From a bacterium (GTDB taxonomy: Bacteria > UBA8248), in contig OZ244799.1 in assembly GCA_965219955.1 (NCBI GenBank), forward strand, positions 3,552,001 through 3,616,000: 64,000 nt of DNA. The letters are read 5' to 3'. Both the position numbers and the translations under genes were made by a program. Of the stretch, positions 41,098 through 54,560 are shown piece after piece. The notes under the pieces are model-generated. The model saw only the letters and a list, made by a program, of their open reading frames with translations, did not search any database and was not told the DNA's origin. Position 1 is the stretch's first letter. Each line of letters begins with the position of its first letter.

Positions 41098-41649
41098 CTA
41101 AATTTTATGATTCATCTCATGGACCAAGAGCGCCAACTTCAAAGATACGCTGCTTGCGAATCCACCGAGCTCGCCCGAGCCCGCGATGACCCGATGTCAT
41201 GGTATTACAAGAGGAACGGGATTTCTATGAAGCGCCTGGCCGACGGCGCGTGATGCTTTCGGGTTTCCGATTTCCTTCGCGACCCAGCCATAATTGCGCG
41301 TCTCTCCGTATGGAATTTCTTCCGTCTTCCTCAGCACTTTTTCCATAAAAGGCGTGAGAGCAGAGAGGTCCGTTTTCAATCTGAAACTTTTTCGCGCGCC
41401 GCTTAGATATTCTTCTATCTCTTTTGAAGCTCGACGATTCAACGGTGTTGATTGCTCCCTCGCATGATTCGCCAAGAGAGGTTTTTCTACGCCATGCAAC
41501 ATTCTTATTTCCGCAATACCTTCATCCGATACGAACACGGAGAATTCCGCATGTACTTTCTGGAGCCAATCGGCAACATGATTTTCCAGCGATTCCCCGT
41601 CTTGTTGGAACAATTCAACCTGCCGCCACTTATCTGCCAGGCGCGCCAT
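41098..41649 (-). CDS. ogt: Methylated-DNA-protein-cysteine methyltransferase, predicted selenoprotein (UGA at 41197-41199)
   Basis: IPYGETRNYG...RAVGQALHRNPVPLVIP-TGA-HRVIAGSGELGGF...KLALLVHE...TAG; the TGA sits exactly at the catalytic Cys of PCHR. Confidence 0.88.
41163..41188 (-). promoter_or_regulatory. Putative bacterial SECIS hairpin (ogt)
   Basis: Minus strand CATC-GC-GGGCTC-GGGC-GAGCTC-GGTG; G-starting loop 20 nt after UGA. Confidence 0.6.
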
Positions 41650-42942: not shown

Positions 42943-43326
42943 TCATGAAGAACAAGACAATACGCGATTGGCCGCTTCCATTTCCATGACACCAGGCGGC
43001 CTCCCAACACCCTCGACAAAGGCGGCATCCGCTCCCGCCATTTCAAGCTGGAAAACAGCCTCGTTCAAATCCGTGTTCGGGGACAACGATATCCCTCGTC
43101 TCGAAGGCATATCCGTTTTGGCAACCTCGCTCACTTTTTGAAATACCTCGGGCACACGAACAAATGCATCAAGGTCCTCTTTGTTCACAATGCCGATCAA
43201 GCGCTTGCTTTCAAAAACAGCCGCCCAAGGCGCGTTTATCCTGTTCATGGCCGCCCAGGTTTCTCTGGTGTCTTCTTCCGCCCCAACAATCGCTACCGCC
43301 TGCAAAAAACACTCCCTGACTTTCAT
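42943..43326 (-). CDS. CBS-domain-like protein
   Basis: MKVRE...LIGIVNKEDL...KVSEV CBS-pair pattern. Confidence 0.55.
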   Translation of the reverse strand: MKVRECFLQAVAIVGAEEDTRETWAAMNRINAPWAAVFESKRLIGIVNKEDLDAFVRVPEVFQKVSEVAKTDMPSRRGISLSPNTDLNEAVFQLEMAGADAAFVEGVGRPPGVMEMEAANRVLSCSS

Positions 43327-44041: not shown

Positions 44042-44070
44042 AAAAAGCCCGTCCCCTAAGGGACAGGCTC
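44042..44070 (-). terminator. Intrinsic terminator
   Basis: Minus strand AGCCTGTCCC-TTAG-GGGACGGGCT-TTTT. Confidence 0.7.
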
Positions 44071-44098
44071 GATACTGCAAGTAAGATTAGGCGTCTTT

Positions 44099-44881
44099 TT
44101 ATTCTCCGGTAAAAACAGGTTTCCTCTTCTCTTTGAACGCCTGCAGCGCCTCGGCGAAATCCCTGGTGTGATTCAACGGCAACCTGTGGGCGTTCGAAAA
44201 TTCGATAGCCTGAGCGAGCGGCATATCGAGCGTCTGATCGATCACTTTTTTCGCGCCACGAACACCCAAGGGGCCATTGTCTCTGATCCGCTCCGCGATG
44301 GAAGTGGCTTCATCCATCAACACATCCAGCGGATGCGCTTTGTTCACCAAACCGATGCGCTCGGCTTCTTTTCCATCGATTCGTTTGCTCGTGTAAACCA
44401 ACTCTTTCGCCTGACCGGCCGGCATTACCCTTTGAAGCCAGACCACGCCGCCGGCCCCGGGGAAAATACCCAAACTGCATTCCGGGAAACAAAGAGTGGC
44501 TTCTTCAGCAGCCAGCCTGATATCGCACACCAAGGTAATTTCCACGCCCCAGCCGAATGTATGGCCGTTGATGGCGGCGATGGTGGGCATGGGCAAGCGC
44601 TCCCATAACGATGTCGCCGCCATCACATAGCGCTGATATTGATCGGCCATCTCTTTCGTATGGGTAGTGCTTTCTTTCAGGTCGCGGCCCGTGCTGAAAC
44701 CACGTCCCTCTCCTGTGAGAATGACCACCCGCACATCTTGCGCGTCGGCCAAAGTTCGCGTCAATTCCACGAATTCTTCCGCCATCTTGAAACTGATTGC
44801 GTTCAGACTCTCCGGACGGTTGAACTTCACTACCGCCAATCCATCTTCTTCCGTATAGGATAATGTTTCAAATTCGCGCAC
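44099..44881 (-). CDS. Enoyl-CoA hydratase/isomerase family protein
   Basis: NRPESLNA, FSTGRDL, IAAING, CDIRLA, EKRKPVFTG; GTG start after AGGAGG. Confidence 0.92.
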   Translation of the reverse strand: MREFETLSYTEEDGLAVVKFNRPESLNAISFKMAEEFVELTRTLADAQDVRVVILTGEGRGFSTGRDLKESTTHTKEMADQYQRYVMAATSLWERLPMPTIAAINGHTFGWGVEITLVCDIRLAAEEATLCFPECSLGIFPGAGGVVWLQRVMPAGQAKELVYTSKRIDGKEAERIGLVNKAHPLDVLMDEATSIAERIRDNGPLGVRGAKKVIDQTLDMPLAQAIEFSNAHRLPLNHTRDFAEALQAFKEKRKPVFTGE

Positions 44882-44920
44882 GTGCCCCTCCTGGGAAATA
44901 CTTTTTCTCAATAATTCGGA

Positions 44921-45451
44921 TCAGCTTTTCAGGTGGCTGGCCACTTCTTCGACAAACTTCAGCGTCGTGTCTCTCATTTCATCGGGCTGCAAATTACTGA
45001 CCGGGTGAGGCAACTGAATATAAGGATGCCCTTCCATGCCCTTGCCACGGAATTGAAAGTCCGCCGCGTTCTTGAACGCCTCGGTGATGATGGTCGTTGA
45101 AGGAATGCCCCGTTTTTCAAATTCAACCGTGTCGTGCACACTGCACAACGTGCAGGAGCCTCAGCCTCCCAATGCGGCTATCGCCACATCCACCTCCTGG
45201 GCCATTTCTTCGATCATTTCATCAGTGGCCGGCTTCGAGTAATGTTCTTTTCGCCTCGAAATGACTCTGGCGACATCGTATTGCTCACGGAGGGCATTCC
45301 CCAGGGTCTCCAAAATGATATCCGCTTGTTCTTTGGTGTTATCGAGGAGCCCTACCACCTTTCCCGAAAGATCGCCGGGCCGTTGCGCAAGCACGATTCG
45401 CGCGGCCGACCCTCCCGCCGTCGGATCGATGAATCCCATTCCGTTCGCCAT
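44921..45451 (-). CDS. UGSC-family selenoprotein (UGA at 45161-45163), 176 aa
   Basis: Two ORF-track fragments are in one frame: ...VAIAALGG-TGA-GSCTLCSVHDTVEFEKRGIPS...PHPV; upstream VGLLDNTK motif; RBS GGAG. Confidence 0.9.
45131..45149 (-). promoter_or_regulatory. Putative bacterial SECIS hairpin (UGSC)
   Basis: Minus strand GTTGTGCA-GTG-TGCACGAC; stem starts 11 nt after UGA, GU in the loop. Confidence 0.6.
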
Positions 45452-45645
45452 GGTTTTCTCCAAATGATAGGTGAATGCAACCGAAACCAAATCATATCCC
45501 GCAATTCATTCCTTGTCTACGATATCAACTCTTTCGATTTTCCCATGAAAATGCGAATGATGTTTTATCCGCTTCTCAGATTCGCGGAATTTTGGCAAAA
45601 TCAAGTCTAATTCACGGCAATCCTCTTACCTTAAGGAGCAAACAA

Positions 45646-47907
45646 ATGGCCGATTACGATATCATCGGCAAGTCGAATGTCCGATACGATGCTATCCCGA
45701 AAGCAGATGGCTCCATGCCCTACGGAGAAGACGCGATCCCTGCAGGCGCTTTGCAGTGCGGCGTGCTGTTTACGCCCGTCCCCGTAGGCCGCCTCAAAAA
45801 GCTCGACACTTCCAAAGCCGAAAAAATCCCGGGCGTAGTCGCCATTCTGACCGCAAAGGACATTCCGGGCACAAACGCGCGATTCGGCTCCGGCACGCCG
45901 GGCCTGCCACATCAGCCCGTGCTGGTTGAGGATAAAATTGAATTTACCGGAGACGCTCTCGCCATCGTAGGCGCCGAAAACAGAGAAGCGCTTGATGCCG
46001 CGATAGCTGCGATCGAATTGGAAATCGAGGCGGAGGAGGGCGTGTGGACAACGCGTCACGATGAAACTAGCGCCGAGAAACGACAAGCGTGTGACTTTGA
46101 AGCTACACGTGGAGACGTAAAAAGAGCGTTTGACGAAGCCGACGTGGTGATTGAGAAAACATACACCACACAACTTGCTGAACACGCCTTCCTGGAACCT
46201 GCTTCCGGTACTTCCTGGATGGAGGAAGACGGCGTCATCACCATCCGCGTCGGCACACAGCTCATTGAATACTATCGCGCCATTGCGGCGATTTTAGGAA
46301 TCTCGCACAGCCGCGTCCGCCACCTCGGCACTTATGTCGGCGGCGGATTCGGCGCCAAGGGCATGCTGACGGTGGAACCTTACCTGGCGCTGCTCACCTG
46401 GCATACGCAAAGACCCGCCGTAATGGTGTTGGGTCGCGAGCACGGCATCCGAAACACCTCGAAAAAACATCCTTTCTATATGAAGTACAAAACGGGAGCG
46501 ACCAAGGACGGGAAAATCTTGGCCGTACAGGCGGACATCGTGGGAGACGCAGGCGCATATCCGTATAAATCGAATCTATTCCTCCTGGGCGCCATGTGCA
46601 TCGCCGCAGGCCCGTACGATGTGCCCAACGCAAAAATACGCGCACACGGCTATCTCACCAACAATCCCATCACCAACGCGATGCGCGGTGTCGGATCGAA
46701 CCAAGTATGTTTCGCGTATGAGACCCAAATGAACCTGGTTGCAGACGCCATCGGGATGGATAAATATGAATTCAGGCGAAAAAATTTCATCCAGAAAAAC
46801 CAGGAACTGCCGACCGGACAGAAAATACCTTATGAACCGAACCTGGAAGGGTGTCTCGACGGCGCGCTTCAGGCTTTGGGCGAACCCACAGAACCAGGCC
46901 CGGGCAAACGCATTGGCAGGGCGGCGGCGGCGAACATCACCGGCTACGGAAGGCCGAATGACGACGCGAATGCGGCGGTTCACCTCGAGCCGGACGGCAG
47001 CGCCGTGGTCCGCGTGAGTGCGCCGGATATAGGCGCCGGCCAGGGCGCTACGCTTCAAAGCATCACGGCTGAAACCCTGGGACTCAGGCTCGACCAGGTT
47101 TCCACCCGCCTGTCCGATTCCGCCACAACACCGCTCTCGGGCATCACCGCAGGCTCCCGACAAACGCTTATGGCCGGGCACGCCGTTCGACTCGCCGCAG
47201 ATGAGGTTCGGAAAGCCGTTACCAAAGGCGCCGCTTCGTTGCTTGAAGCTGCGGAAGAGGATATTCGCGTAGGAGGCGGCGAGGCGTGGGTGGCCTCTGC
47301 TCCCGAGAGAAGAGTCGGCATCGGTCCTGCGGCCGGCGAAGCCAAAAAAATGGGTGAAGCGCTGCATTGCACGCATGGCTACAACATGCCGGGACATGAA
47401 TATGAGAATCCGGAGCGATACATGAATGGCATGGGCGGATGGTCGGACTACACATTCGGTGTTCATGCAAGCGAAGTGGAAGTCGACATCGAAACCGGCG
47501 AAGTGAATCTCTTGAAGCACGTCGCTTCCCATGACGTCGGGCGAGCTCTGAATCCTCAAAGCGTGGAGGGGCAATTCGAAGGCGGCGCGGTAATGGGAAT
47601 CGGCTATGCGCTGCACGAGGAAATCACCATGGTGGAAGGAGACTGTCGATCACAGAGCTTTCACGAGTATCTGATCCCCACCTCCTCGGATATCGGCGAG
47701 TTTGAGTCCGTTGTTCTTGAATGCGGGGAAGGGGCGGGTCCATATGGCGCACGCGGCGTCGGAGAACCTCCGTGCAATAACGCGCCGGCCGCTGTCGCCC
47801 TCGCCATCAACGATGCGATAGGCACGGAGGTCTACGACCTGCCCATCACGCCCGAGCGTGTCTGCTGGGCGGTAACAAAGAAAAACGGTAAAAGCAACGG
47901 CCATTAA
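45646..47907 (+). CDS. Xanthine dehydrogenase family molybdopterin-binding large subunit
   Basis: EHAFLEP, VGGGFGAK, AMRGVG, DIGAGQG, GSRQT, GQFEGG, RGVGEPP; RBS AAGGAG. Confidence 0.93.
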   Translation: MADYDIIGKSNVRYDAIPKADGSMPYGEDAIPAGALQCGVLFTPVPVGRLKKLDTSKAEKIPGVVAILTAKDIPGTNARFGSGTPGLPHQPVLVEDKIEFTGDALAIVGAENREALDAAIAAIELEIEAEEGVWTTRHDETSAEKRQACDFEATRGDVKRAFDEADVVIEKTYTTQLAEHAFLEPASGTSWMEEDGVITIRVGTQLIEYYRAIAAILGISHSRVRHLGTYVGGGFGAKGMLTVEPYLALLTWHTQRPAVMVLGREHGIRNTSKKHPFYMKYKTGATKDGKILAVQADIVGDAGAYPYKSNLFLLGAMCIAAGPYDVPNAKIRAHGYLTNNPITNAMRGVGSNQVCFAYETQMNLVADAIGMDKYEFRRKNFIQKNQELPTGQKIPYEPNLEGCLDGALQALGEPTEPGPGKRIGRAAAANITGYGRPNDDANAAVHLEPDGSAVVRVSAPDIGAGQGATLQSITAETLGLRLDQVSTRLSDSATTPLSGITAGSRQTLMAGHAVRLAADEVRKAVTKGAASLLEAAEEDIRVGGGEAWVASAPERRVGIGPAAGEAKKMGEALHCTHGYNMPGHEYENPERYMNGMGGWSDYTFGVHASEVEVDIETGEVNLLKHVASHDVGRALNPQSVEGQFEGGAVMGIGYALHEEITMVEGDCRSQSFHEYLIPTSSDIGEFESVVLECGEGAGPYGARGVGEPPCNNAPAAVALAINDAIGTEVYDLPITPERVCWAVTKKNGKSNGH

Positions 47908-49642
47908 CCCGGATATTTCACCGACAAATGGCATGGGGCCTCTGAATGTCGGATAATGTGAGTTGTCTCAATAACTTACACCCGTCCGACAGAGAGGCCC
48001 CATGGATACGCATTGTACACCGGAACAACTTCACTTTCACCCCCACGGAAGACGCGAGGTCATCGCCCGATTCGACGGCGGACGGATCACGTCGGACGCC
48101 GGCGGGGTGCTGCTTCGCGAGACGGATCTCCGCCTGGGTCTGATGGCTCGTCTGGCGCGGTGTTTTCGTGATTGCCGCAAGCCCGGCAGCGTGGAGCACC
48201 CGGTGCGCTCGCTGGCGGCGCAGCGGGTGTACGCGCTGGCGCTGGGCTACGAGGACCTGAACGACCACGAGGATTTGCGCCGCGACAGGTTGCTGGCGCT
48301 GCTGGTGGGCAAGCGGGACCTGACGGGAGCCGGGCGGGTTCGCCTTCGGGACCGCGGCTCTCCGCTGGCCGCATCGAGTACGCTGAACCGCCTGGAGTTG
48401 GGCGGCGCCGAGGCGGCGACGGATCGCTACAAGCGCATCGCTGCGGACTTCGAGGCGATGGACCGCCTGCTGGTGGACGTGTTCATGGAGTCTTACGCCG
48501 AACCGCCCGAAGAGATATGGCTGGACCTCGACGCCACGGACGACCCCCTGCACGGTCGCCAGGAGGGGCGCTTCTTCCACGGCTATTACGGCCGCTACTG
48601 TTATCTGCCGCTCTACGTCTTCTGCGGCGCGCATCTGCTGTGCGCGCGGCTGCGCCGCTCGAACGTCGACGCCTCGGCCGGCAGCGAGGAGGAGTTGGCG
48701 CGGATCGTGGCGCAGGTCCGCAGGCGCTGGCCGCGTACGCGGGTCGTGGTTCGCGGCGACTCGGGTTTTTGCCGCGAGCCGTTGATGCGCTGGTGCGAGG
48801 AGAACGGCGTCGGCTACGTGTTCGGCATGGCGCGCAACGCGCGGCTGGTGCGGGCGATTGGCCGGGACCTCTACCGGGCCGAGGTCGTCTGTCGCCGCAC
48901 GGGTGAGCCGGCGCGCCGGTATCGCGACTTCCGCTATCGAACGCGCAAGAGCTGGTCCAGAACCCGCCGGGTGGTGGGCAAGGCGCAATACCTGCCCAGG
49001 GGGGCGAACCCGCGGTTCGTGGTCACCAATCTCCGCCCCCGGCGGGCCGGCGCCAGACGCCTCTACGAAGAACTCTACTGCGCCCGGGGAGAGATGGAGA
49101 ACCGCATCAAGGAACAGCAACTCGGCCTGTTCGCCGACCGCACCAGCAGCGCCACCATGAGGGCCAATCAGTTGCGGCTCTACTTCGCCTCCTTCGCCTA
49201 CGTCCTGATGCACGGACTCCGGCGCCTGGGGCTGGCGGGCACGACATGCGCCAGGGCCCAGTGCGCAACGATCCGGCTGAAACTGCTCAAGATCGGCGCC
49301 CGCGTGAGGGTCAGCGTGCGCAAGGTCCGGCTGTCTATCTCCGAGGCCTGGCCCCATGCGGCGCTCTTCGAAAAGGTAGTGAACAACCTGCGTACGCACC
49401 CGCCCTGGCCGACGGCGGGGGAGAGTGACTGAGCGTAGAATCGGAGCGACATAGGTTGCCGCAGCGGGAAACCTGCGCCTGCGCGTCGGCCGGCACTCCC
49501 CGAAAGCCTTCGAAATCGACGAAAAAGCGCCGCTCGGGCGCCGTGCGTCATCGTATCGCGCCGACGAAGAAGGCCGCCTCCCGAATCAAGCCGTCCACGA
49601 CTTCAAATCAGGCCGTTCCAAAGCCTCGGTGAAATATCCGGG
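47908..49642 (+). mobile_element. IS1380-family insertion sequence (1735 bp)
   Basis: Perfect 17-bp terminal IRs CCCGGATATTTCACCGA (47908-47924 and 49626-49642); TTAA on both flanks; GC-rich relative to its surroundings. Confidence 0.95.
48002..49432 (+). CDS. IS1380-family transposase
   Basis: FDGGRITSDAG, GYEDLNDH, LDLDATDDPLHGRQE, RGDSGF, RGEMENRIKE. Confidence 0.95.
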   Translation: MDTHCTPEQLHFHPHGRREVIARFDGGRITSDAGGVLLRETDLRLGLMARLARCFRDCRKPGSVEHPVRSLAAQRVYALALGYEDLNDHEDLRRDRLLALLVGKRDLTGAGRVRLRDRGSPLAASSTLNRLELGGAEAATDRYKRIAADFEAMDRLLVDVFMESYAEPPEEIWLDLDATDDPLHGRQEGRFFHGYYGRYCYLPLYVFCGAHLLCARLRRSNVDASAGSEEELARIVAQVRRRWPRTRVVVRGDSGFCREPLMRWCEENGVGYVFGMARNARLVRAIGRDLYRAEVVCRRTGEPARRYRDFRYRTRKSWSRTRRVVGKAQYLPRGANPRFVVTNLRPRRAGARRLYEELYCARGEMENRIKEQQLGLFADRTSSATMRANQLRLYFASFAYVLMHGLRRLGLAGTTCARAQCATIRLKLLKIGARVRVSVRKVRLSISEAWPHAALFEKVVNNLRTHPPWPTAGESD

Positions 49643-49660
49643 TTAACAGGCTTCAATCAC

Positions 49661-49694
49661 AAAAGAGCCCCGGCATTATTGTCGGGGCTCTTTT
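49661..49694. terminator. Bidirectional intrinsic terminator
   Basis: AAAAGAGCCCCGGCA-TTAT-TGTCGGGGCTCTTTT between convergent genes. Confidence 0.85.
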
Positions 49695-49816
49695 CTAAAG
49701 AAACACACAGTATTTCTTGTATTGCAAAGAGCAGACCGAACAGAGTCCTTTCGGGATTCTGAGATGTGTTGCTGAAAACCCGGTCTTCTGACCATTATTT
49801 TCTGAAAAGAAAACTT

Positions 49817-50836
49817 TCACACATCAAATTTTTTTGTCACGGCCCGACACGCCACGGTGATCCCGTGCATGACCATGCTGGAGGGTGAACCCCTGCTTCC
49901 CGCGACGATTAAATGAAGGTCTTCGGGATCGCCAACCGCAGGCACAAAAAAATCATCATCGTTCACATCCACGGGAAACGGCCAGCGATCCGCGCCTTTC
50001 TCTCCCCTCCAGATACCGCCGCGCTTGATATCCCCGATAGTGCGCCCACCCATTTCCAGTAATTTTTGATGGACATCACTGCGAGTCATTCCGGCGTCAG
50101 CGCAAAGATGCGCATGTTGCGCGCCCAGGACAACCGCCATATCTGCTTGCCGATACATATTGGGCCCACCCAAGGCGGACATCATATCGGCAACCGTCGT
50201 CAGAAGCCGGTCGGGCGTCAGGCTCGCATCGTCCCATACCTGCACGGGTCCTTCGAGTGGAATCATGGTCACCACGCTATCGTTCTTTGAAAACCCTTTG
50301 GATTCCGCATACGACTCCCAGGGAGATTCCTCCTCGTTCTCCATGATGCAAAAAGTGTTTCGCCAGGGGCCGCCAAAACCGCCGAGACAGGTGATACCGG
50401 GAATGCCTCCCCCCACGTTCATCATGATGAGCCGCACGGCGCGGCCGATGGTCAGATTCGCGCGAAAACCGGGACCCATGCAGCCCACTCCGCCGTGCAG
50501 TCCGATCTCCTTTGCGTAGGGACCATTAACCAATAGAAAAGGAGCGCCCGCGCTTGTTGTGGCCTGAATCAGATTTACGTTGAAACGCTCATCAAGAAGC
50601 GCCTCCAGCCCGGCTATCAAAACCGGCATGTATTCGGGCTTGCAACCCGCCATCACGGCATGGGCCGCCACGCTTTGAATGCTGAGTTCCCCGCCCGCCG
50701 GAGCCACTTGGCCAAGCACTTCGCCCGGCTCCCTTGTCGTTCCTGTGAGCATCAAGCCAATTCTCTCTTCCGTGGGCGTCACGACAGGCAGGCCGTCCGA
50801 CCATTCCTTGTCAAAGAAAAACTCAAACTCATCCAT
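49817..50836 (-). CDS. Uncharacterised WSDGLPV-family protein, paralog 4 (putative UGSC partner)
   Basis: WSDGLPVVTPTEER, AVMAGCKPEY, VNGP, GPGFRANLTIGRA, ENEEESPW. Confidence 0.85.
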   Translation of the reverse strand: MDEFEFFFDKEWSDGLPVVTPTEERIGLMLTGTTREPGEVLGQVAPAGGELSIQSVAAHAVMAGCKPEYMPVLIAGLEALLDERFNVNLIQATTSAGAPFLLVNGPYAKEIGLHGGVGCMGPGFRANLTIGRAVRLIMMNVGGGIPGITCLGGFGGPWRNTFCIMENEEESPWESYAESKGFSKNDSVVTMIPLEGPVQVWDDASLTPDRLLTTVADMMSALGGPNMYRQADMAVVLGAQHAHLCADAGMTRSDVHQKLLEMGGRTIGDIKRGGIWRGEKGADRWPFPVDVNDDDFFVPAVGDPEDLHLIVAGSRGSPSSMVMHGITVACRAVTKKFDV

Positions 50837-50871
50837 GCGTTCATCCTCAAAAGCAAGCCTGAGAGAAAGGC

Positions 50872-51888
50872 TTATGGTTCATATTCGATTGAGACCGCCT
50901 CACTGCCATCCACCCAGCCGGGCATGACGGCCGTCACCGGGCCGGGCGTACCCCCTGCGACGAGAAGAATCAGATCTTCTTCATCCTTAATCGCCGGTAC
51001 CAGATACGAATCATCCTGCAGGTTCACGTCAAATGGCCACTTGGCTGCCATCTCATCACGCCAATAGCCTGATTTTTTCAGCTCTCCAAGGGGCTTTCGC
51101 GCAAGCTCCATGATTCGGCGATGGACATCTTCCTTACTTAAACCAGCCTCTGCGCACATGCGCGCATGATCCGGACCCAAAGCAACGACCACCTGGGTTT
51201 TCAGCCATATATTGAGCGAACCCAAGGTCGATATTTTATCCGCAAGGCCCACGAAAAAAGATTCCGGCTCTTTTGAATAATCGTCGATATAGCCTTGAGG
51301 CGCTTCCGTCATCACGGCGGTCACGACATCTTCATCCTGCTGAAAGCCCTTCGTGACGGACAATGGCTCCCAGGGGCTTTCCGCTTCGTTCTCGGCGATG
51401 CAAAACGTATATCTGGCGGGCGAGCCGAACGTGCTCATCGAGGCGGAAACCGGCACACCGCCGCCCAGGTTCATGAGTATTAACCGGATGGCGCGTCCAA
51501 TCGTCGCATTCGCCCGAAAACCCGGCCCGAAGCAACCTGTGCCGCCATGCAGGCCGATTTTTTTCGCATACGGCCCGTTCACGATGATCAGAGGGGCCGC
51601 GCTGTGCATGGTGCCCTGTACGCCGTTCAAATTGAGTTTTGGCGCAAGGAGCGCTCCAAGCCCTGCAATAACAAGGGGCAAATACGAAGGCTCACACCCC
51701 GCCATCACGGCGTGCGCGGCAATCGCCTCCACGCTCGCCTCCCCCATGAGGGGCGGCACCAAACCGATAATTTCCGAGGTTTCAAGCCTCGTACCCGAAA
51801 ACATGGCGGCCATTCGTTCTTCTGTAGGGGGAATTACCGGCAGGCCGTCCGACCAGGGTTTTTGAAAGAAAAACTCGAATTCATCCAT
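50872..51888 (-). CDS. Uncharacterised WSDGLPV-family protein, paralog 3
   Basis: Same motifs as its neighbours. Confidence 0.85.
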   Translation of the reverse strand: MDEFEFFFQKPWSDGLPVIPPTEERMAAMFSGTRLETSEIIGLVPPLMGEASVEAIAAHAVMAGCEPSYLPLVIAGLGALLAPKLNLNGVQGTMHSAAPLIIVNGPYAKKIGLHGGTGCFGPGFRANATIGRAIRLILMNLGGGVPVSASMSTFGSPARYTFCIAENEAESPWEPLSVTKGFQQDEDVVTAVMTEAPQGYIDDYSKEPESFFVGLADKISTLGSLNIWLKTQVVVALGPDHARMCAEAGLSKEDVHRRIMELARKPLGELKKSGYWRDEMAAKWPFDVNLQDDSYLVPAIKDEEDLILLVAGGTPGPVTAVMPGWVDGSEAVSIEYEP

Positions 51889-51929
51889 GGGAAAATGACT
51901 TTACCAGACGGAATGCGGGAAATCCGGCA

Positions 51930-52964
51930 TTACACTTCAAACACGCCATGAACGGCGCGGCTGCCGCCGCTCCACCCGTGACAGACCGCACTGCCCGATC
52001 CCCAGCCGCCCGCGACGATCAAATGGAGGTCACGGGGATCCTTGATGACGGGAACGAAAAACTCATCATCATCGGGCTCCGTGTGGATATACATCGCCAG
52101 CGCGCGCTCACGCCGCCAGTTTCCGCCTCGCTTCAGGTCCTTCACCTTGTGGCCGGCCAGCTCACACAGCCGCTGATGCACGTCCGCGCGCGTAAGGCCG
52201 CCCTCGGAGCAAATCTTCGCATGCTGGGGATTCATGGCGACGACCATATCGGTTCTGGGCGCGTGCATGTTCCAGGAGCCCAGACCCGTCATCGCATCGG
52301 CGATTCCCCGGAGCAGCCTCTCGGGCTCCTCGCTGACGTCATCGAAGGTCAGGCGCGGGCTTTCCACCATGGCCATGGTGATCACGTTCTCATCCGCCCC
52401 GTATCCCCTCGATTCGGCGAGCGTCTCCCAGGGGTGAAACTGGAGGTTCTCCGTGACGCACGCGGTATAGCGAAGCGGCGTGCCGAAAATCGTCATGGAA
52501 GAAACGCCCGGGATGCCCCCGCCCAGGTTCATCAGAATCAGGCGAATCGCGCGGCCGATGGAGGCGTTGGCCCTGAATCCGGGGCCGAAACAGCCATTGC
52601 CCCCGTGAATGCCGATTTCCCCGGAATACGGGCCGTTCACGATCATCAGGGGCGCCACGCCGTGCATCGTGCCCTGCACACCGTTCATGTTGAATTCATC
52701 GCGAAGCATGAGGGAGGCGGCGCCGAGTACGACCGGCAGGTATTCCGGCTTACACCCGGCCATGACCGCATGCACCGCCACGCTGTGAACCGTGGCCTCC
52801 CCCATGGCGGGAGGAACCTGACCGATGACCTCGGCAGGACTTCTCTTCGTGCCCGAGAGCATGCGCTCGATGCGCTCTTCGGTCGGGGTGACGACGGGCA
52901 GGCCGTCCGACCAGGGTTTTTCCAGGAAAAACTCGAATTCATCTTGAGGATCGTTCAAAACCAT
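51930..52964 (-). CDS. Uncharacterised WSDGLPV-family protein, paralog 2
   Basis: Same motifs as its neighbours. Confidence 0.85.
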   Translation of the reverse strand: MVLNDPQDEFEFFLEKPWSDGLPVVTPTEERIERMLSGTKRSPAEVIGQVPPAMGEATVHSVAVHAVMAGCKPEYLPVVLGAASLMLRDEFNMNGVQGTMHGVAPLMIVNGPYSGEIGIHGGNGCFGPGFRANASIGRAIRLILMNLGGGIPGVSSMTIFGTPLRYTACVTENLQFHPWETLAESRGYGADENVITMAMVESPRLTFDDVSEEPERLLRGIADAMTGLGSWNMHAPRTDMVVAMNPQHAKICSEGGLTRADVHQRLCELAGHKVKDLKRGGNWRRERALAMYIHTEPDDDEFFVPVIKDPRDLHLIVAGGWGSGSAVCHGWSGGSRAVHGVFEV

Positions 52965-52986
52965 TCACCCCTTGATATATTTGGTC

Positions 52987-54021
52987 TTATGACGATTCAA
53001 ATGCGCGGGAAACCGAGCGGCTGCTCCCGTTCCAGCCGTGCATCACGGCCGTAATCGGCCCCGGAACCCCGCCCGCCACGATCAGGAGCAGCCTCCCGGT
53101 CTCTTTGATCGTCGGAACGAACGCATCGTCATCATCCAGATCGACGGGGAACGGGAAGTCTCTGATGCGGTTCTCCCGGTAATGCCCCCCCGTTTTGAGT
53201 TCGCCCACCGTGCGGCCCGCGATTTCGCAAAGACGCCCATGGACATCCGCTTTCGAATACCCCTTTTTGGCGCAGATCGTGGCCTGCTGCGGACTCATCG
53301 CCACCACCAGATCCGTGTTGGCCCAGCAGTTCCACGAACCCAGATGCGACATGGTGTCCGCGATGGAGGGGAGCATGCGCTCGGGGTCGTCGCTCACGTC
53401 ATCCCAGGACATGACGGGGCCTTCCACGTGCACGGCGGTGACGACATCCTCCCCCGCATCAAAACCCTGCGTCTGCGCGAAAGACTCCCAGGGGCTTTCC
53501 GCTTCATTCTCGGCGATGCAGTACGTGAACCGCCCCGGTTGAGAGAACGTGCTCATCGAGGTGATGCCCGGGATTCCGCCGCCGATGTTCAGGAGCAAAA
53601 GCCTGATGGCGCGCCCGATCGTCGCGTTGGCGCGGTTCCCGGGGCCGAAGCAGCCGAGCCCGCCGTGTACGCCGATTTCCCCCGCGTAGGGGCCGTTCAC
53701 GATCAAAAGGGGAGCCGCGCAGGAGAGCGTCGCCTGCACGCCGCCCACGTTGAATTTTTCCTCCAGAATCGCTTCCACGGCCCCGATGAGAACCGGCATA
53801 TACGCCGGCCTGCACCCGGCCATGACGGCGTGGGCGGCGATGCTTCGAACGTCCGCCTGCGCCAAGAGCGGAGGCACGTCGCCCAGGACTTCGTCCGGGT
53901 CGCGGTTCGTTCCCGCCAGCATGAGGCCCAGGCGCTCCTCCGTCGGGGGGATGACCGGCAGGCCGTCCGACCAGGGTTTCTCGAAGAAATACTCGAACTC
54001 ATCCACGGGAGAAGTGCTCAC
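52987..54021 (-). CDS. Uncharacterised WSDGLPV-family protein, paralog 1
   Basis: Same motifs as its neighbours; GTG start. Confidence 0.85.
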   Translation of the reverse strand: MSTSPVDEFEYFFEKPWSDGLPVIPPTEERLGLMLAGTNRDPDEVLGDVPPLLAQADVRSIAAHAVMAGCRPAYMPVLIGAVEAILEEKFNVGGVQATLSCAAPLLIVNGPYAGEIGVHGGLGCFGPGNRANATIGRAIRLLLLNIGGGIPGITSMSTFSQPGRFTYCIAENEAESPWESFAQTQGFDAGEDVVTAVHVEGPVMSWDDVSDDPERMLPSIADTMSHLGSWNCWANTDLVVAMSPQQATICAKKGYSKADVHGRLCEIAGRTVGELKTGGHYRENRIRDFPFPVDLDDDDAFVPTIKETGRLLLIVAGGVPGPITAVMHGWNGSSRSVSRAFESS

Positions 54022-54173
54022 GAAATGCCTCCGGAGAAACTTGACGACGCGCAGGATACGTTAATAAAGCCGCACAAATATACATGGGCGCTGGACAGAT
54101 TGCGAGTCGGTGTCGTTAGAATGCGTCTGACGCTCCATCTTCCGTAAACGCCTCAACTACAGGAGTTTATTCC

Positions 54174-54560
54174 ATGCCGATCTACAGAAACCTCGCCGCG
54201 CAGAACCAGGGGAAAGCCGCCGACTACGTCACCGCAGACGCCGCCTGGGTCGATGGCGCCCATACCACCATCGGTTATTTCCGCATGGAGGCGGGGGGCC
54301 ACTCCAACCCGCATTATCACCACGACGAGCAGTTCCTCTATCTCCTGAAGGGCGGGCTGCGGGTGGCCGTGGAAGGGGAGATACTCGAAGCCGCGCCAGG
54401 CGATCTGGTGCAGTTCCGTCCCGGCGAGGTGCACGAGATCATGGCGCTGGATGAGCCCGTGGAACTCCTGCTCACGAGGGCTCCGGCCCGGCCGAGTCTC
54501 GAGGTGCTCGCGGTGACGCCCGAAGGAGAGAAGGCCCGCAGCGTCCTGCGCTCCGAATAG
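54174..54560 (+). CDS. Cupin domain protein
   Basis: PHYHHDEQFLYLLKG...FRPGEVH; RBS AGGAG. Confidence 0.85.
   Translation: MPIYRNLAAQNQGKAADYVTADAAWVDGAHTTIGYFRMEAGGHSNPHYHHDEQFLYLLKGGLRVAVEGEILEAAPGDLVQFRPGEVHEIMALDEPVELLLTRAPARPSLEVLAVTPEGEKARSVLRSE

Follow-up and report, generated by a model that had tools for sequence, protein, structure and literature searches.

The stretch of DNA analysed here (64,000 nucleotides; contig OZ244799.1 of assembly GCA_965219955.1, positions 3,552,001 to 3,616,000 of the forward strand, from a bacterium of the lineage UBA8248), which is referred to below as the window, carries a gene for a selenoprotein of the UGSC family and, upstream of it on the same strand, an array of four paralogous genes for proteins of about 340 residues. 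The paralogs belong to an unnamed family with the motif WSDGLPV (W-S-D-G-L-P-V), to which the name W is given here. The two families were found to be associated across genomes, both by adjacency and by fusion, and we put at about one in two the probability that the genes of the window exemplify a two-component enzyme of wide distribution, in which W is the catalytic and UGSC the reducing component and a single UGSC protein is shared by the array. More tentatively, UGSC and W may together represent an undescribed class of two-component selenoenzyme, in which one selenocysteine (Sec) module is shared by four, and up to seven, ancient catalytic paralogs.

The selenoprotein and the W array

Analysis of the reading frames upheld the gene content given in the initial annotation, namely one UGSC selenoprotein of 176 residues and four intact W paralogs (P1 to P4) upstream of it on the same strand (Table 1). 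The UGSC gene starts with ATG at 45451, behind GGAG, and stops with TGA 44921-44923. Its Sec codon is TGA 45161-45163 (residue 97) within the motif GGUGSCTLC...EFEKRGIP; the corresponding column was occupied by Cys or Sec in every one of 73 aligned family sequences. The protein matched PF24696 (Pfam) with 174.1 bits (cut-off 25; model positions 3-171 of 172) and NF041046 (NCBIfam) with 149.9 bits (cut-off 125), and these profile matches make it a full UGSC-family member. Components for Sec decoding were identified in the genome, namely a tRNA-Sec (aragorn) and SelB (390 bits; cut-off 242). A candidate bacterial Sec insertion sequence (SECIS) was assigned by position only, the folding energy of the 62-nt stretch being no better than that of shuffles (z 0.11). 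A search for longer UGSC homologues found none; as gene callers end their proteins at the Sec codon, this result carries no information.

P1 to P4 contain no internal stops and show full-length identities to P1 of 55-57%, a similarity that is far beyond chance on sequence comparison. All four keep each of the 20 columns that are invariant among the 15 W copies of the genome (D19, G20, P22, P26, T27, A62, A68, G69, C70, P76, G110, P111, G128, G136, R137, A138, W178, G186, V315 and G317). Among 87 W sequences, C70 and C168 were conserved in at least 90% and E171 was invariant. The invariant Cys sits in the motif A-x-x-A-V-M-A-G-C; D-G-L-P (followed by P-T), G-R-A and E171 are further invariant elements. 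No Pfam match was obtained for the W proteins even at E 10, the GrdE/PrdA family included, and no NCBIfam match. An Fe-S cluster in W was considered and rejected, since only two Cys are conserved; a third (Cys129) is present in 9 of the 15 own copies. Two plus-strand open reading frames (ORFs), 51948-53054 (368 aa) and 53038-54147 (369 aa), lie antisense to P2 and P1 and would be chosen by longest-ORF callers; the family searches made with them gave no match, a codon-usage model prefers the W genes, and they are taken as antisense artefacts.

Association of the W and UGSC families

The initial annotation had stated that WSDGLPV proteins often lie next to or are fused with UGSC domains, and that a lack of genomic association would speak against its proposal. 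Association was found within the genome itself, at loci of other genomes and within single proteins. The genome contains eight UGSC genes, each with one in-frame TGA, and 15 W genes. In seven cases the UGSC gene lies immediately beside a W gene of the same orientation; the UGSC gene of the window is the sole exception. The W genes that have no adjacent UGSC gene are the four paralogs of the window and three single genes of the same clade that stand alone elsewhere in the genome, so the number four is not special. One of these seven own loci consists of a single reading frame of about 538 aa, in which UGSC (with the motif UGGC) precedes W and one TGA occurs; a UGSC-W fusion frame (541-574 aa) recurs in 13 genomes of the genus, this genome included. 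Among 31 related genomes, which are kin and reflect few independent events, 20 contained both UGSC and W, and in the other 11 neither was detected.

When 1.84 billion representatives (50% identity clusters) were searched with a profile built from the 15 own W copies, at least 7994 clusters matched at E <= 0.001, of which 2457 reached E <= 1e-30. Domains were scanned in the 72 representatives of at least 400 aa among the best 150 W matches. UGSC was found at E <= 0.001 in 46 of these 72 (in 43 at or above the Pfam cut-off of 25 bits): 17 carry a whole UGSC domain at the N terminus, 25 an N-terminal fragment that begins after Sec and four a C-terminal fragment that ends before Sec. Such fragments are explained by gene callers that cut Sec-containing fusions at the Sec codon. 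Ten of the 17 whole N-terminal domains match the pattern C-G-x-x, that is, they have Cys at the Sec position. In four of the 72 (P0149, P0201, P0210 and P0220), W is fused to another redox domain, namely thioredoxin-reductase-like Pyr_redox_2 (one), the ferredoxin-thioredoxin reductase catalytic chain, FeThRed_B (one), or AhpC-TSA/Redoxin (two); as natural variants, these four could reveal the electron path. The remaining 22 were without a domain match. Six among them (P0122, P0124, P0125, P0131, P0133 and P0148; about 710-740 aa) contain two tandem W domains, recognised as two to three matched stretches with no Pfam match, which hints that W may act as a dimer.

With each species represented by one genome, a scan yielded more than 618 W stretches, and the 80 best loci were analysed further; their hosts include Betaproteobacteria, Dehalococcoidia, Nitrospinota, Methylomirabilota, Rokubacteria, Entotheonella, Natrialba and others. 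UGSC was detected by six-frame hmmsearch at 65 of the 80 loci, always on the W strand. The 67 W-UGSC pairs obtained have a median gap of 85 bp, 64 of them lying within 300 bp, and the Sec position is TGA in 63 pairs and Cys in four. Gene order follows the motif: where W precedes UGSC the motif is UGSCxxC (46 of 53 pairs), and where UGSC precedes W it is UGSCxxW (12 of 14), with nine misfits among the 67. All eight UGSC loci of the genome obey this rule, which points to two anciently separate pair types, possibly with different docking or chemistry. Some UGSC and W genes overlap by 4 nt (L026:8035-8038) or abut without a gap (L092:7038), as expected for translational coupling.

Probable pairing of the array with the UGSC gene of the window

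None of P1 to P4 has an adjacent or fused UGSC; the nearest UGSC gene lies 4366 bp away, beyond two other genes, downstream on the same strand (a gap of about 4.4 kb). These two genes agree with the initial annotation, which had placed only an opposite-strand molybdenum (Mo) enzyme gene and an IS1380 element in the gap; the former was recognised by its domain matches and the latter also by its inverted ends.

The window UGSC shares its UGSCTLC motif with seven UGSC proteins, to which it is 59-72% identical; its identity to the remaining 59 in the comparison does not exceed 45%. The genes of six of these seven lie 49-134 bp after W genes whose products are 65-75% identical to a window paralog (P2 or P4), and the seventh follows a frameshifted W gene. 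In a FastTree phylogeny of 101 W proteins the window clade comprises 15 rows (SH-like support 99); P2 groups (100) with four W proteins that are partnered by UGSCTLC proteins and P4 (100) with two more. From these groupings it follows that the paralogs are old and that, elsewhere, two or more of the four types have this type of UGSC as partner.

Four W genes followed by UGSC on one strand were found in 18 of the 18 other genomes of the genus. The gap between array and UGSC is 2.55-2.67 kb in 15 of these and 4.9-6.2 kb in the other three, against 4393 bp here; the difference matches the IS1380 element, which, judged by gap size, is absent from the corresponding spot in the relatives. A distant genome (G031, locus L034), in which W is 64% identical, has a cupin gene (49%), three W genes, an opposite-strand Mo gene (79%), UGSC, directly behind it an enoyl-CoA hydratase gene (66%), and a gene for a 127-aa protein (52%). 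Judged by gap size, each of the 18 genus genomes has the Mo gene between array and UGSC, and in G031 the sequence shows it there. The layout is shared by two lineages, and kin are not independent.

According to the initial annotation, dedicated UGSC partners for each paralog elsewhere in the genome would have counted against sharing. No spare UGSC gene was found, each of the other seven having its own adjacent W gene. On the evidence of phylogeny and layout, one UGSC protein probably serves all four paralogs of the array, and perhaps also the three stand-alone W genes of the same clade.

Predicted folds and homology to GrdB

The AlphaFold2 (AF2) model of W, computed for P1 with 87 sequences, reached a pLDDT of 95.7 and a pTM of 0.93. 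A Foldseek search gave class I fumarate hydratase alpha as best match (7xky_A; E 4e-4, TM 0.30/0.34), and VIA-align against 48,161 chains peaked at Z 5.0 over 90 residues. Searched against PDB sequences, W gave a single match (E 0.2) and UGSC nothing below E 0.1. The ESM Atlas returned only clusters that are unnamed or called 'Thioredoxin family protein', without a Pfam family. Class I fumarate hydratase alpha, Fe-S L-serine dehydratase and PrpD/MmgE were the only enzymes that recurred among the weak structural matches of W, all at noise level by the guidance of the tool itself (VIA-align Z 3.4-3.7 over 99-187 residues); W has no three-Cys cluster motif, only Cys70 and Cys168 being conserved. 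Judged by the model, W appears to have no close solved relative, although its N-terminal part of about 200 residues was barely probed alone.

The AF2 model of UGSC (pLDDT 94.5) is a predicted three-layer alpha/beta fold with Sec97 between strand 89-95 and helix 98-113. The top 49 Foldseek matches are flavodoxin-like, CheY-like and SIS-type folds (TM 0.31-0.55); none is named thioredoxin, although a thioredoxin fold would be compatible with a weak or absent match.

The parallel drawn in the initial annotation with the Sec segment of GrdB held for the Sec module only. Alignment by hhalign of 73 UGSC sequences with 13 full-length GrdB-family selenoproteins, which were taken from this genome and its relatives and read through TGA (TUGTCTRC...EIEREGLP), gave a probability of 93.5% (E 2.2e-7, 83 columns) and placed UGSC 86-175 on GrdB-like 336-421, with Sec on Sec and CGSCT on CGTCT. 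By this alignment the C-terminal half of UGSC is homologous to the GrdB-type Sec module, and to that module only. Against TIGR01917 the window UGSC scored 19.4 bits (cut-off 602.2; E 4e-4) over model positions 325-415 only, short of a full-length match, and PF07355 gave no match either in the protein scan or at that place in the genome search. The hhalign probability for W and the GrdB N-terminal domain was 0.9%. GrdE/PrdA, GrdA/GrdC/GrdD and PrdC were absent from the Pfam matches of the 29 ORFs between 33.9 and 63.9 kb of the window, the rest of the genome not having been searched for them.

Neighbouring genes and other selenoproteins

The coordinates of the features are collected in Table 1.

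Table 1. Features of the window around the UGSC gene and the W array (positions in the window; strand., not assigned).
Feature	Position	Strand	Remarks
Acyl-CoA dehydrogenase, 414 aa	41673-42917	-	
127-aa protein, no family match	42943-43326	-	ortholog (52%) after hydratase in G031
Enoyl-CoA hydratase 2, 233 aa	43323-44024	-	behind strong hairpin 44045-44070
Enoyl-CoA hydratase 1, 270 aa	44099-44911	-	starts 10 bp past UGSC stop
UGSC-family selenoprotein, 176 aa	44921-45451	-	TGA read as U; Sec97, motif UGSCTLC
Candidate bacterial SECIS, 8-bp hairpin, GUG loop	45131-45149	-	begins 12 nt past UGA; by position only
Promoter-like site TAGACA-17-TATGAT, 10/12	45491-45519	-	about 40 nt before UGSC start
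Lone molybdopterin-binding subunit, xanthine dehydrogenase / 4-hydroxybenzoyl-CoA reductase family, 753 aa	45646-47907	+	
IS1380 element	47904-49646	+	transposase 48002-49432; NF033539 403.1 bits (cut-off 180)
15-bp inverted repeat, A-run and T-run flanks	49661-49694	.	in the gap of the convergent P4/Mo gene pair; probably a bidirectional terminator
W paralog P4, 339 aa	49817-50836	-	clusters with the W proteins of L036 and L043; at each locus a UGSCTLC gene comes directly next
W paralog P3, 338 aa	50872-51888	-	basal in window clade
W paralog P2, 344 aa	51930-52964	-	W of L035 (74% identical) has a UGSCTLC gene directly behind it
W paralog P1, 344 aa, GTG start	52987-54021	-	groups with three tandem W genes of locus L034
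128-aa protein	54174-54560	+	divergent from W array; 49% identical to Cupin_2 protein at same place in L034

The suggestion in the initial annotation that the system is linked to CoA-dependent enzymes gained weight, hydratase 1 following the UGSC gene after 10 bp and family III CoA-transferase (CoA_transf_3) being the commonest neighbour elsewhere. In a scan of 74 loci (at most two ORFs per side, 254 neighbours) this family occurred at 11 loci and any CoA-ester family at 18; within the genome, CoA-ester enzymes flank four of the eight UGSC loci. The two hydratase genes are separated by a minus-strand hairpin (44045-44070; 11 pairs, seven of them G-C, then a T-run). In G031 the second hydratase gene is missing and the gene for the 127-aa protein comes directly.

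Among contigs from two sponge metatranscriptome libraries, one of 1358 nt covers hydratase 1 and UGSC through the TGA (44097-45432), and a second one of 273 nt covers 45161-45433 with two differences; most of the W array had little or no contig cover in three RNA-library runs. These contigs cannot prove transcripts, rank genes or show expression, and DNA carry-over is possible.

The longest ORF of the Mo gene is 45475-47907; its likely start is ATG 45646, behind AAGGAG. The product has three Pfam domains (hammerhead and two MoCo-binding domains) and scored below all NCBIfam equivalog cut-offs, the best being pucD (412 bits; cut-off 784); 4-hydroxybenzoyl-CoA reductase alpha gave 386 bits (cut-off 995). 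No gene for an Fe-S or FAD subunit was found beside it, the rest of the genome not having been searched. Its ortholog at the same position in L034 is 79% identical and thus better conserved than W (64%) or the cupin (49%).

The IS1380 element is bounded by perfect 21-nt inverted repeats (47904-47924 and 49626-49646) with TTAA at both outer ends. It was inserted exactly where the Mo gene ends, its left end and the stop codon of that gene overlapping. A transposase of equal length and Pfam score lies beside another W gene of the genome (O2; L032:12308-13738) and a related IS1380 transposase near a further one (O1; L031:13588-14913); the element seems to have been recently active, repeatedly near W genes. 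The 15-bp inverted repeat between P4 and the Mo gene is absent from the list of the consensus terminator scan; in the promoter and terminator scans of the region the number of sites was not above chance.

With its eight UGSC genes and those described next, the genome is rich in selenoproteins. An O6-methylguanine-DNA methyltransferase (41098-41649 of the window, minus strand) has its active-site Cys replaced by Sec (PUHRV; the TGA is codon 151, where the table-11 ORF ends); Sec-containing enzymes of this kind are a known but rare selenoprotein type. A full-length GrdB-family selenoprotein (G000:C1:1275837-1277140) has the motif TUGTGTRSG with no Cys after Sec. In three PrdB-like proteins of about 175 aa (G000:C1 3740559-3740951, 3178508-3178909 and 3398949-3399341) the Pfam match stops just before V-U-P-L-C or A-U-G-L-C.

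Proposed mechanism and alternative explanations

From the genes and the Sec codon, the fusion and adjacency of the families, their co-orthology, the layout kept across genomes and the Sec module that UGSC has in common with GrdB, we infer how the two proteins might bind, be shared and divide the work, and where their substrate might belong. W, a protein of about 340 aa apparently with a fold of its own, would bind the substrate and perform the chemistry through its invariant Cys. UGSC, with its flavodoxin-like fold, would reduce or resolve the Cys adduct on W by means of the selenol/thiol pair in U-x-x-C (here U-x-x-C-x-x-C). The arrangement in the window would have arisen from an ancestral W-then-UGSC pair that became an array of four old W paralogs with one UGSC, and the Mo gene, joined in this strain by the recent IS1380 element, would have come to separate the two. 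The products would probably enter CoA-ester metabolism via the hydratases and the dehydrogenase, which would be transcribed with UGSC. Substrate and chemistry are placed on W because of its redox-domain fusions, its invariant Cys and its greater size and diversity; as judged from sequence, W as the catalytic and UGSC as the reducing or resolving partner fits these fusions better than W as a set of mere specificity subunits.

Several observations weigh against this reading. All genomes of the genus have more W than UGSC genes (10 to 3 and 9 to 4 are two examples), and 15 of the 80 scanned W loci are without UGSC. Ten of the 15 have ample flank; of the other five, four have less than 700 bp of flank on one side and L034 has UGSC 3.9 kb further on. 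W may often work with other reductants. Array and UGSC form separate transcription units, with an opposite-strand gene and a terminator-like hairpin between them, and UGSC has a promoter-like site of its own (45491-45519). The layout is conserved in two lineages only, and the modelled fold of W appears to give no clue to the substrate. The gene context of W-UGSC pairs is catabolic and varied: the six closest pairs from Betaproteobacteria are flanked by TctC, TauD, RidA, amidase and PrpD-like genes, and no CoA or Mo enzyme was found within their scanned flanks.

A possible though rather doubtful alternative is that Sec97 is the primary nucleophile, as in GrdB/PrdB, and attacks a substrate held by W, with formation of a selenenyl-sulfide with the Cys of U-x-x-C; the paralogs would then be interchangeable substrate holders. 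The Sec module is indeed homologous to the GrdB family, Sec on Sec, with a weak direct match to TIGR01917, proteins of the GrdB type act with a separate substrate-activating subunit, and Sec is strongly preferred over Cys (63 of the 67 pairs), as expected for a catalytic residue. Against it stand the W proteins in which generic thiol-disulfide domains take the place of UGSC (4 of 72) and the ten loci with ample flank and no UGSC, from which W seems able to work without the Sec module, and also the invariant Cys that W itself possesses. Moreover, W resembles neither the GrdB N-terminal domain (0.9%) nor any Pfam family, GrdE/PrdA included, and neither GrdA nor GrdC/D was among the neighbours scanned, no dedicated search having been made.

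The separate transcription units of array and UGSC, the RNA-library contig that joins UGSC to hydratase 1 (44097-45432) and the frequency of W genes without a nearby UGSC, together with the excess of W over UGSC in all genus genomes, would also be consistent with the nearness of the two being a relic, UGSC serving only the hydratase/dehydrogenase operon, or one paralog at most, and the W genes being independent. This is unlikely, however, in view of the order and orientation kept in 18 of 18 genus genomes and in the genome with 64%-identical W, and of the W genes of the P2 and P4 types that are directly followed by this type of UGSC elsewhere; a UGSC without W would also be the exception, given that 65 of 80 W loci and seven of eight own UGSC genes are paired. 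Still less probable is a three-part system special to the lineage, in which array, lone Mo subunit and UGSC would cooperate, for example with electrons passing to or from the Mo enzyme. The persistence of the Mo gene between array and UGSC (18 genus genomes by gap size, L034/G031 by sequence), its conservation (79%, against 64% for W and 49% for the cupin) and the lack of a neighbouring gene for a small or medium subunit would agree with such a system, and 4-hydroxybenzoyl-CoA reductase alpha, among its best models (386 bits, below the cut-off), would fit the nearby CoA enzymes; but the gene is on the opposite strand, and no Mo enzyme occurs in the flanks of the six closest Betaproteobacteria pairs or among the 254 scanned neighbours. 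The Mo enzyme was rejected as a general third partner, being absent at the other loci scanned.

Relation to known systems

GrdB/GrdF/GrdH of glycine, sarcosine and betaine reductase and PrdB of D-proline reductase act together with a separate partner protein, and the C-terminal part of UGSC (about 90 residues, U-x-x-C) is homologous to theirs. Unlike GrdB/PrdB, UGSC has no GRDB domain of about 335 aa, and W, with which it is paired, bears no relation to the N-terminal domain of GrdB; aerobic lineages are among the hosts of W-UGSC pairs, whose catabolic, CoA-linked contexts are not of Stickland type. The arrangement of a small redox-pair protein beside, or fused to, a larger Cys enzyme also recalls the pairing of redoxins with thiol-dependent reductases, such as thioredoxin or glutaredoxin with methionine sulfoxide, arsenate or PAPS reductases, or AhpF with AhpC, and in some W proteins thioredoxin-fold, FeThRed_B or thioredoxin-reductase-like domains replace UGSC. 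In contrast to these pairs, the top structural matches of UGSC are flavodoxin-like and W matches none of the reductase families named; the redox chemistry of the pair is putative.

The UGSC family ('UGSC-containing protein', Zhang and Gladyshev) has been listed since 2007-2008 (PMC1976440, PMC2398784). In its accessible passages the 2008 paper describes UGSC as a major ocean selenoprotein of undescribed function, with 255 Sec and 21 Cys forms in ocean samples, and reports a fusion 'UGSC/Unknown_1', in which 'Unknown_1' may or may not correspond to the W family (PMC2398784). The same passages suggest a thioredoxin-like fold, whereas the model obtained here matches flavodoxin-like three-layer folds. 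Reviews of 2022 and 2026 still list UGSC as uncharacterised in the parts accessible (PMC9312934, PMC13188914), and a full-text literature search for UGSC terms returned nothing on function. Compared with the family at large, the window differs in that the partner of UGSC is a four-gene array about 4.4 kb away, neither adjacent nor fused. New beyond this literature are the scale and near-constancy of the W partnership, a partner family without a model or solved relative, the finding that UGSC is homologous to the Sec module of GrdB, the rule that links gene order and motif, and the one-to-four arrangement in two lineages.

Significance

UGSC is among the most abundant selenoprotein families of ocean metagenomes and was found nearly always with a second, much larger family, W; an orphan redox motif thereby becomes an enzyme of two proteins that can be put to the test. 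Sec insertion could be avoided by starting from cultured organisms with the Cys form, namely Parapusillimonas granuli LMG 24012, Candidimonas nitroreducens SC-089 and Natrialba asiatica DSM 12278. The window itself is a natural experiment on modularity, in which one Sec subunit and four old paralogs have been kept together in two lineages. If the proposed class of enzyme is real, a W fold without a solved relative would be driven by a free-standing GrdB-like Sec module, in an enzyme very common in bacteria of ocean, sponge, groundwater and soil and present in some archaea. Such a selenoenzyme would be modular: the expensive Sec component would need to be made only once, and exchange of its partner would determine the range of substrates.

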